DNA of 64,000 nt, taken from contig OZ024743.1 in the NCBI GenBank assembly GCA_964016885.1, forward strand, positions 147,002,001 to 147,066,000, read 5' to 3'. Under the pieces are notes generated by a model. The model had not been told where the DNA came from, did no database searches, and was given only the letters and a program-made list of their open reading frames with translations. How positions within the stretch are numbered: position 1 is the stretch's first letter; every line of letters begins with the position of its first letter. The stretch comes from Eledone cirrhosa (Eukaryota). The translations under genes were made by a program, and so were the position numbers. Shown in pieces: positions 37,375 through 39,000 of this stretch.

Positions 37375-38142
37375 TGAAAAATAAGGGGAGAAGAATTCTG
37401 CATGGTTGCACATGGATTACATATTATAAAATTAGTCCCCATCAGTGATTTGCCAACCATCATTGGTATTTCATCCCATTAAAAATCAGATACCTCAGGT
37501 TGGTGCGAGCAATAACTAAAATAAGCTATTGGGACAAGTGAAACGCGTAAAGCGAGTGAGACAAGTAAACAACAGAAGGAAAAGCAAACCGAAGGTTGGG
37601 AAAACAGCAAGCAACATGATAGTTATCCGATCAACATAATCTGGGTGAATTTCATGAGCGGTCAGAGAAGCAGACCGTACGCCGTGAATGCGGTGTGAGA
37701 AAGAAGGAACCCCACTACTAGCGAACGGGAGGAAGTGAGAAGGGGAGAAACAAAGAGTGAGTGAGTGGAAGTGCGAGGAAGTGGTCAGTCGAGAGAAAGT
37801 GTTAACTGACAGAGGGGACGAAAGAAGGTAAGAGAAACAGAGAGAACGGGGGAGCAGTAACAGAGAAACAGATAATCGCAGTTTAGGTAAATATATATGA
37901 AAAACAAGGGGAGAAGAATACTGCATGGTTGCACATGGATTACATATTATAAAATTAGGACCTCATCAGTGATTTGCCAACCATCATTGGTATTTCATCG
38001 CATTAAAAATCAGATACCTCAGTTGGTGCGAGCAATAACTAAAATAAGCTATTGGGACAAGTGAAACGCGTAAAGCGAGTGAGACAAGTAAACAAGAGAA
38101 GGAAAAGCAAACCGAAGGTTGGGAAAACAGCAAGCAACATGA
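37375..38142 (-). mobile_element. Tandem ~524-bp non-coding element (family A) with permuted hammerheads at 37438-37503 and 37962-38026
   Basis: Direct repeats 37375-37620 and 37897-38142. Motif ccaac(c)-tga-ggta-tc-tgattt-ttaatgcgat-gaaa-tacc-aatgat-ggttgg-c-aaatca-ctgatga-g. Confidence 0.7.
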
Positions 38143-38278
38143 TATATATATATATATATATATATATATATATATATATATATATATATATATATATATA
38201 TATATATATATATATATATATATATATATATATATATATATATATATATATATATATATATATATATATATATATATA

Positions 38279-39000
38279 CGAAATGGCTACGACGGTTGGA
38301 AGGCCACTGATGAGGACAAACTTTTTCATATGTAACCCATTTGCAGCGCCGCAGCTCCATTATTATCATATTTACACATATATTTTTTCCTCCGCTGCCA
38401 CCAGTCTGTTTCGTTCTTTGTGTCTTTACTCTTTCTAGCAGTCTCTCTCTCTCTGTTAGCCTCTTCTTCACCTTTCACTCACTCACTCTGTGTCACTACT
38501 TCTCCTCCTCCCCTTTCTTCCCGTTTGACCTGTCCGTAATCCATTTCTCGCGGGCACTTGGCCAAGCTGGTATGAATTTTTTTCTCTCTCTCTCGTCTGC
38601 GACTTCACAGAACTTATGTTTACCGAATTCGCAGACCAGACCCCTTCTTCCTCCCGTTAGACCTGTGCGAAATTCCTTCCTTGCTCACATTTCAACCAGG
38701 TTTGATGGTCTTTATTCTCTCGTTCACGATTCCACCGAATTTATATTCATAGAAATCTAGGACTTGTTTCTTTCTTCATCATCACTTTCTGTTGCTTAAA
38801 CCATTTTGTTTGTTTACCCTAGCGTCCCCTCTATTTACGTGTCCCAACGACTTTTTTTAGCCGTTGCTCGCACCAACCTGAGGTATATGGCCTTTAATGC
38901 GACGAAATGCCTACGACGGTTGGAGGGTCACTGATGAGGACAAACTTTTTCATATGTAACCCATTTGCAGCGCCGCAGCTCCATTATTATATCATATTTA
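38279..39000 (+). mobile_element. Tandem ~624-bp non-coding element (family B) with a permuted hammerhead at 38873-38938 and a 5'-truncated copy at 38279-38314
   Basis: ccaacc-tg-aggta-ta-tggcctt-taatgcgac-gaaa-tgcct-acgac-ggttgg-agggtca-ctgatga-g. Confidence 0.7.

Follow-up and report, generated by a model that had tools for sequence, protein, structure and literature searches.

Two insertions, A and B, lying in a 64,000-nucleotide stretch of Eledone cirrhosa DNA (the window) probably belong to two young subfamilies of a tandem, non-coding retroelement, of which they are 5'-truncated copies and which carries a hammerhead-like motif with a split helix II and with its core blocks in the order cleavage site, GAAA, CUGAUGA (SGC); the motif would be self-cleaving, and the element would have been copied into TA microsatellites by a Penelope-like reverse transcriptase (RT)/GIY-YIG protein acting in trans. 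This reading is built on direct observations of the block order of the motif, its seven covarying helices, its copy number, the anatomy of the insertions and the occurrence of the same layout in Naiad elements.

The features of both insertions are collected in Table 1. In A, a direct repeat of 258 nt (96.5% identity) gives a period of 524, and the predicted cut sites are likewise spaced 524 nt apart; B has a repeat of 108 nt (94.4% identity) and a period of 624. The ribozyme region is common to A and B (194 nt, 75.8%), as is a short patch of the body (67 nt, 73%), and the bodies contain 67% (A) and 66% (B) pyrimidines. The longest ATG-started frame ranged from 33 to 141 aa across 12 A units and from 51 to 85 aa across 12 B units; as these lengths vary from copy to copy, no ORF is conserved. 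A coding unit or an endless ORF was ruled out, the periods being variable (518-533 in A, 618-630 in B) and the frames unconserved. The initial annotation of this DNA had described the periods, the layout, the shared flanks, the divergent orientation around a TA tract and a pyrimidine-rich body devoid of an ORF, and comparison of the repeats in the window and of frames between copies bore all of this out. It had also taken A and B for 1.2-1.5-mers with a terminal repeat. The repeats are present, but the elements are 5'-truncated tandem arrays with fixed 3' ends rather than terminally repeated elements, and the terminal repeat is one point along a continuum of 5' truncation.

Three of the four motif modules in the window are damaged or partial. 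Besides its missing A9, the 3' module of A is altered in the strand preceding GAAA; the 5' module of A has a broken closing helix a/a' and a 1-nt deletion in d; and the 5' module of B begins one base 5' of GAAA. Release of unit-length RNA is therefore not expected from these copies, and neither insertion should, as present, free such RNA by double cleavage.

Table 1. Insertions A and B, the adjoining TA tracts and the strands of the complete module of B (positions in the window)
Feature	Position	Strand	Remark
TA tract at the 3' end of A	37352..37374		common to A and a canonical PLE fragment, tail to tail
Family A insertion	37375..38141	-	1.46 units, 5'-truncated, 3' end in TA tract
A, 3' putative ribozyme module	37433..37536	-	order S-G-C; cut predicted at 37489/37488; A9 of CUGAUGA absent, hence predicted inactive
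A, 5' putative ribozyme module	37957..38059	-	core intact; predicted cut 38013/38012
(TA)68 tract	38142..38278		faced by the 5' ends of A and B
Family B insertion	38279..39003	+	1.16 units, 5'-truncated, 3' end in TA tract
B, 5' partial module	38279..38318	+	GAAA and CUGAUGA blocks only, no cleavage site
B, 3' module	38840..38942	+	sole complete module of the four in the window
B complete module: a	38840-38844	+	
B complete module: hairpin h	38845-38866	+	
B complete module: b	38868-38872	+	
B complete module: d	38873-38878	+	
B complete module: kink-turn-like internal loop	38879..38917	+	38879-38881 with 38912-38917, between stem III and d/d'; tandem G.A pattern
B complete module: stem III strand plus UH	38882-38887	+	predicted cut 38887/38888
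B complete module: stem I	38888-38893	+	
B complete module: b'	38898-38902	+	
B complete module: GAAA	38904-38907	+	
B complete module: d'	38918-38923	+	
B complete module: stem I'	38925-38930	+	
B complete module: CUGAUGA	38931-38937	+	
B complete module: a'	38939-38942	+	

Other features were noted elsewhere in the window. Canonical PLE fragments with RT followed by GIY-YIG (Pfam) lie at 5283-7135 and 36205-37351 (+) and are 87-90% alike. Near 6905-6940, within the former, lies a degenerate, minimal core resembling that of a type I hammerhead. The latter shares a single TA tract with A, in a tail-to-tail arrangement, and has at its end a similar pyrimidine run before TA; it was ruled out as the parent, since it has no BLAST match to A or B. 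A near-perfect palindrome at 39057-39178 carries a normally ordered core (CUGAUGA...GAAA) on each of its arms, has many similar copies elsewhere and likely consists of the inverted 3' ends of another PLE. Type I-order hammerhead cores were also seen at 22511-22659 (an inverted pair) and at 11790-11837. An 870-nt inverted repeat with identical arms of 422 nt occupies 27758-28626, a 504-aa RT frame at 20582-22096 (+) belongs to what we take to be a LINE-like element, and a broken region at 16636-18087 (-) is presumably transposase-like.

With a descriptor for all six possible block orders, only SGC was found in the region, and none of 300 shuffles matched any order. Stem I measures 6-8 bp and stem III 4-5 bp in these matches, and stem II is contiguous over 1 bp. 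The circular orders CGS, GSC and SCG (types I, II and III) did not occur in this region, and type II or another circular permutation was ruled out because no stems fit; Rfam returned no hammerhead match, neither at the gathering score nor at E<=10. The permuted hammerhead proposed earlier is thereby upheld, with its core strands in SGC order. The core letters are those of a hammerhead (CUGANGA, GAAA and UH), A9 being absent from one window copy, and at the predicted cut AUA or AUC stands in 78 of 82 modules, with no triplet ending in G. Stems I and III adjoin the core, with 98% and 100% of cells paired, respectively, and with double-sided changes. Contiguous pairing in stem II is limited to 1 bp in A and B and to 0 bp in nine Naiad loci (described below), and b/b' together with a four-way junction stands in its place. 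The unusual part of the motif is this non-circular SGC permutation with a split helix II.

The strands follow one another in the order a, hairpin h, b, d, site, stem I, b', GAAA, stem III', d', stem I', CUGAUGA, a'. Helix II is split in that the strand 5' of GAAA pairs upstream, and a further helix closes the four-way junction. Covariation was scored on a hand-picked alignment of 21 copies of several subfamilies, from which three B rows (out of register) and a damaged A row had been dropped. In this alignment 95.5% of cells are paired, 14 of 34 pairs show a double-sided change, and at least one pair is changed on both sides in each of seven helices, including four of the six pairs of d/d', the helix by which stems I and II interact. 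None of 500 shuffles reached the observed score and slid controls gave 26-46%, to be read with the caveat that kinship between copies may inflate covariation scores and that relatives can beat shuffles without any structure. In 99 modules, sampled in the order of the genome, the base that follows CUGAUGA was compared with the base that precedes GAAA (10.1-11.1). The two pair in 94, as A-U, G.U, G-C or U-A, against a mean of 74.6 and a maximum of 83 of 99 in the shuffled control; they are unpaired in the other five and in four of the 21 alignment rows.

In 71 of 78 modules, stem III and d/d' are separated by a bulge of 3 nt in which tandem G.A pairs are conserved, and this bulge matches what we take to be the kink-turn consensus. 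With a kink-turn at this position, d/d' would be able to bend back as far as the ends of stems I and II. Nested folding, a method that does not extend to pseudoknots, gave a competing fold for B and z values of only -1.3 to -1.5, and does not independently support the structure. When folded as circular units against 30 shuffles each, A was no more structured than its shuffles (z +0.8) and B had a z of -3.6. An older SGC family (L151, L160, L165, L174 and L177) has no hairpin h, and hence a three-way instead of a four-way junction.

In the microsatellite-rich, 3.0-Gb genome, pattern counts covering all subfamilies yielded 16,041 complete cores against 0 in the control, and 19,562 halves made up of the G and C blocks against 23. 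DNA searches gave 1,442 and 1,623 first-look candidates, of which 40 were scored, at 98-100% identity; copies of both families are young (median 96% to a reference unit). Dispersed copies, whose absence would have spoken against the initial annotation, are thus present at high number in the genome, as non-coding tandem units with one hammerhead motif each. Insertion anatomy was determined on loci selected for the presence of the ribozyme, most of them with 1.5-kb flanks and a few of the ends being reference artefacts. Counted from the predicted cut, 45 of 54 A segments stop at +125-134 nt, and among 65 B segments 56 stop at +70-74 or +120-124; the 3' flank is TA-rich in 37 A and 52 B segments. 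By contrast with these fixed 3' ends, 5' ends are scattered, arrays measure 0.16-2.6 units, and two full modules are present in 8 of the 54 A and 9 of the 65 B segments. Inverted 5' partners stop about 45 nt before the end of the main copy, like a PLE tail. Fixed 3' ends, 5' truncation, inverted 5' parts, a tail and a microsatellite target together form an anatomy of PLE type. The identity within arrays, used as a test for rolling circles, could be taken from only six pairs. Contigs from three runs of one sample aligned to B in many variants. B also contains a stretch that we presume to be A-box-like; it runs directly into a T run, and an internal Pol III promoter was set aside on that ground.

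Naiads are described by Craig et al. (2021, PMC8557442) as (TA)n-targeting elements with no canonical hammerheads and, in eight cases, with "half cores" (HHR_half_core). Read by eye, consensus sequences in File S5 of that work show the same helices, made of other letters, in the Octopus Naiads Naiad_Obim and Naiad_Ovul and in three Acropora Naiads, in each case at the 3' end. For a computed test, Naiad proteins were collected, followed by 80 metagenomic Naiad loci; a Naiad protein word search gave no match, and a HMMER search then yielded relatives. A sense-strand SGC core was found 3' of the ORF in 9 of the 80 loci, compared with none on the antisense strand and 1 in 400 shuffles. The remaining 71 loci had no SGC match under the strict descriptor, and 13 of the 80 offered less than 300 nt downstream. 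In all nine SGC loci b/b' is 6 bp long and ends in G-C11.1 (the shuffled control reaches 6 bp in 12%), a/a' has at least 4 bp and d/d' 6-11 bp; in three of them a GIY-YIG motif lies upstream of RT. In these nine Naiads the upstream strand itself provides the partner of the base before GAAA, so that helix II is completely split there. The junction differs by one base pair from that of A and B, where C11.1 is partnered by the base after CUGAUGA. Another of the 80 loci (L360:3480-3560) has a candidate hammerhead in CSG order with stems of 9, 6 and 6 bp, an order for which Eckert et al. (2023, PMC10085705) give only two published examples.

Naiads as described by Craig et al. (2021, PMC8557442) share with A and B the (TA)n targets, partial tandems, inverted 5' parts and a tail, and the same ribozyme layout was read here at their 3' ends. 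The differences are that A and B lack an ORF, and that they are young whereas the Naiads of this genome are decayed. The most likely source of the motif is the 3' end of a Naiad.

Traces of cleavage were sought in the DNA copies themselves. Junctions or indels start exactly at the predicted site in 12 of 30 copies, which had been preselected for a base other than T after the site and were counted without a genome-wide control at neighbouring positions; such deletions and small insertions are what trimming and re-ligation would give, and are suggestive at most. Among 125 unselected copies, serving as a local control, there were nine scattered stops, three of them in unrelated sequence, a number too small for comparison. 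A first count of 5' ends gave no peak at the cut site, and in a recount over 99 modules 14 of 20 nearby 5' breaks fell within 17 nt after the site and 6 within 28 nt before it, a density that could equally be due to RT stalling or to bias of the pattern. A derivative present at three loci (L065, L081 and L122) has lost GAAA and CUGAUGA by a deletion that joins the predicted cut site to the body. The ribozyme may therefore be dispensable for moving.

These traces bear on a reading in which the motif folds as described and serves as a signal that binds a protein or positions RT, self-cleavage being weak or absent, uncut multimers being spread and no circle formed. We hold it to be unlikely, although several observations suit it: every insertion with a full module derives from RNA that was intact at the site, the ribozyme-less derivative has spread to at least three loci, hammerhead cleavage is dispensable in vitro in the anole PLE (PAc), and eight of nine Xenopus retrozymes tested by Li et al. 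(2026, 10.64898/2026.07.22.740005) failed to cleave. A mere signal does not readily account for the exact core letters, the base other than G at H17 and the three core helices, all kept from metagenomic and Acropora Naiads to A and B, nor for the junctions lying exactly at the predicted site, uncontrolled as that count is.

It is improbable that the SGC order is only apparent and that the active form is an ordinary type III hammerhead spanning two units or molecules, with the site and CUGAUGA supplied by one unit and GAAA by the next. PLE and axolotl hammerheads can act as dimers (Cervera and de la Pena, 2020, PMC7229834), and strands might be swapped between identical repeats, but a contiguous helix II is impossible in any pairing (1 bp), the S and G blocks are tied locally by d/d', the kink-turn and short fixed spacers, and a single module in Naiad contigs contains all partners. 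That A and B are mere 3' ends (pLTRs) of an autonomous Naiad or PLE and not independent retrozymes is about as improbable: the motif is indeed located at Naiad 3' ends, and the protein search scored 131 of 5,413 first-look candidates, but ORF-free units are joined head to tail in 13 A and 15 B adjacent pairs, no BLAST-aligned copy runs into an ORF in the 60 best loci, and no intact Naiad was present among the 131 scored matches.

The best Naiad-like matches in that protein search were short or contained stops. The exact Naiad RT motif had no match in the genome; with two mismatches allowed there were 14 matches, most of them translating to a decayed Naiad RT, against 13 in the control. The remnants are similar to Octopus Naiads in the literature; 3' of the 10 that were retrieved, an intact ribozyme module could not be recognised, and their decay agrees with a remark on cephalopods in Craig et al. 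(2021, PMC8557442). A young canonical PLE, on the other hand, is present in many copies. An open frame of at least 777 aa with RT followed by GIY-YIG was found in 10 of 10 copies examined (L401-L410), and a minimal type I-like core, starting with UUGA and not CUGA, in the 3' end of 7 of 7. These ten copies have a CxxC linker (labelled Neptune/Nematis-like here) and a long TG-rich 3' region. This PLE inserts in TA tracts, and its intact copies have no sequence in common with A or B. It may be the helper, and we treat it as a candidate.

The initial annotation had regarded A and B as non-autonomous elements mobilised by Penelope RT/GIY-YIG. Their non-autonomous nature and Penelope-like insertion anatomy stand, and a partner sharing their 3' end was not found: the autonomous PLE ORF ending in the same repeat, for which a search had been proposed, did not appear in the 60 best loci or in the intact PLE. 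Li et al. (2026, 10.64898/2026.07.22.740005) have already argued that such elements derive from PLEs and are non-autonomous, and Craig et al. (2021, PMC8557442) describe partial tandems, inversions and the tail for PLEs. In the anole PLE, reverse transcription is initiated internally, and insertion in vitro proceeds without cleavage.

Mobilisation of a self-cleaving tandem element might then proceed as follows. The array would be transcribed, and each module would fold with stems I and III as pseudoknots, its helix II being built of the 10.1-11.1 pair and the four-way junction (a/a', hairpin h, b/b'), while d/d', bent back by the kink-turn, would tie stem I to helix II. Two cuts after AUA or AUC would free a monomer of 520-630 nt, which could be ligated into a circle. 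A PLE protein would nick (TA)n, and reverse transcription would start at an internal point of the RNA that lies 70 or 120-130 nt downstream of the cut, copy back across that site and stop at random, often with an inverted 5' part. Because RT crosses the cut site, the site would have to be uncut or re-ligated in the template. The motif would come from a Naiad 3' end, and the present helper is possibly a canonical PLE. A more far-reaching version, which we put forward tentatively and with somewhat less than even confidence, is that Naiads carry an active hammerhead whose topology falls outside the six described block orders, a four-way junction splitting its helix II, and that here it escaped into non-coding, circle-forming retrozymes of 520-630 nt that outlived their source Naiads and are now moved by an unrelated canonical PLE.

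Two groups of known ribozymes are closest to the motif. The SGC ribozymes of Eckert et al. (2023, PMC10085705), HRIMA-1 and a variant, cleave and come from metatranscriptomes. Like A and B, type-SGC HRIMA-1 has the order site, GAAA, CUGAnGA, a short linker between stem I and the helix II strand, and an additional helix that connects stems I and II at their far ends. In HRIMA-1, however, helix II is contiguous with CUGAnGA, in keeping with the assumption in that work that block C (stem I, CUGAnGA and the stem II strand) is uninterruptible, whereas in A and B the partner strand b lies upstream of the site, and a helix and a hairpin close a four-way junction. Cleavage has been shown for HRIMA-1 and is predicted for A and B, which are animal genomic DNA and have the kink-turn-like loop.

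The second group comprises the non-LTR retrozymes of animals (PMC7229834; 10.64898/2026.07.22.740005), which are likewise described as non-coding tandem units with one hammerhead per unit, dispersed in thousands, for which mobilisation by PLEs is proposed. These carry type I hammerheads and form self-paired circles of 170-400 nt. No type I hammerhead is found in A and B, known here from DNA alone, which have the split-core SGC motif in pyrimidine-rich units of 520-630 nt, that of A not being rod-like. The suggestion of a new class of retrozyme holds as regards a permuted hammerhead in dispersed non-autonomous elements, but these are better described as a variant of animal non-LTR retrozymes. 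Judged by its sequence, the motif would be a variant of the hammerhead, with SGC order yet without a contiguous block C, and of the animal retrozyme. Neither a description of the layout in animals or Naiads nor a tested precedent for a split helix II was found in the literature searched, which included few subscription journals and excluded the supplements of Eckert et al. (2023) and Li et al. (2026).

If this reading is true, a non-circularly permuted hammerhead exists at high copy number in animal genomes, the SGC ribozymes of Eckert et al. (2023) coming from metatranscriptomes only, and the assumption that CUGAnGA and the helix II strand are contiguous is broken. It would also explain the apparent lack of hammerheads in a widespread PLE clade, standard descriptors being blind to the split layout. 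A construct of 110 nt and clear mutants make the motif directly testable, and it can be used to ask whether the ribozymes of PLEs are required for mobility or are passengers.
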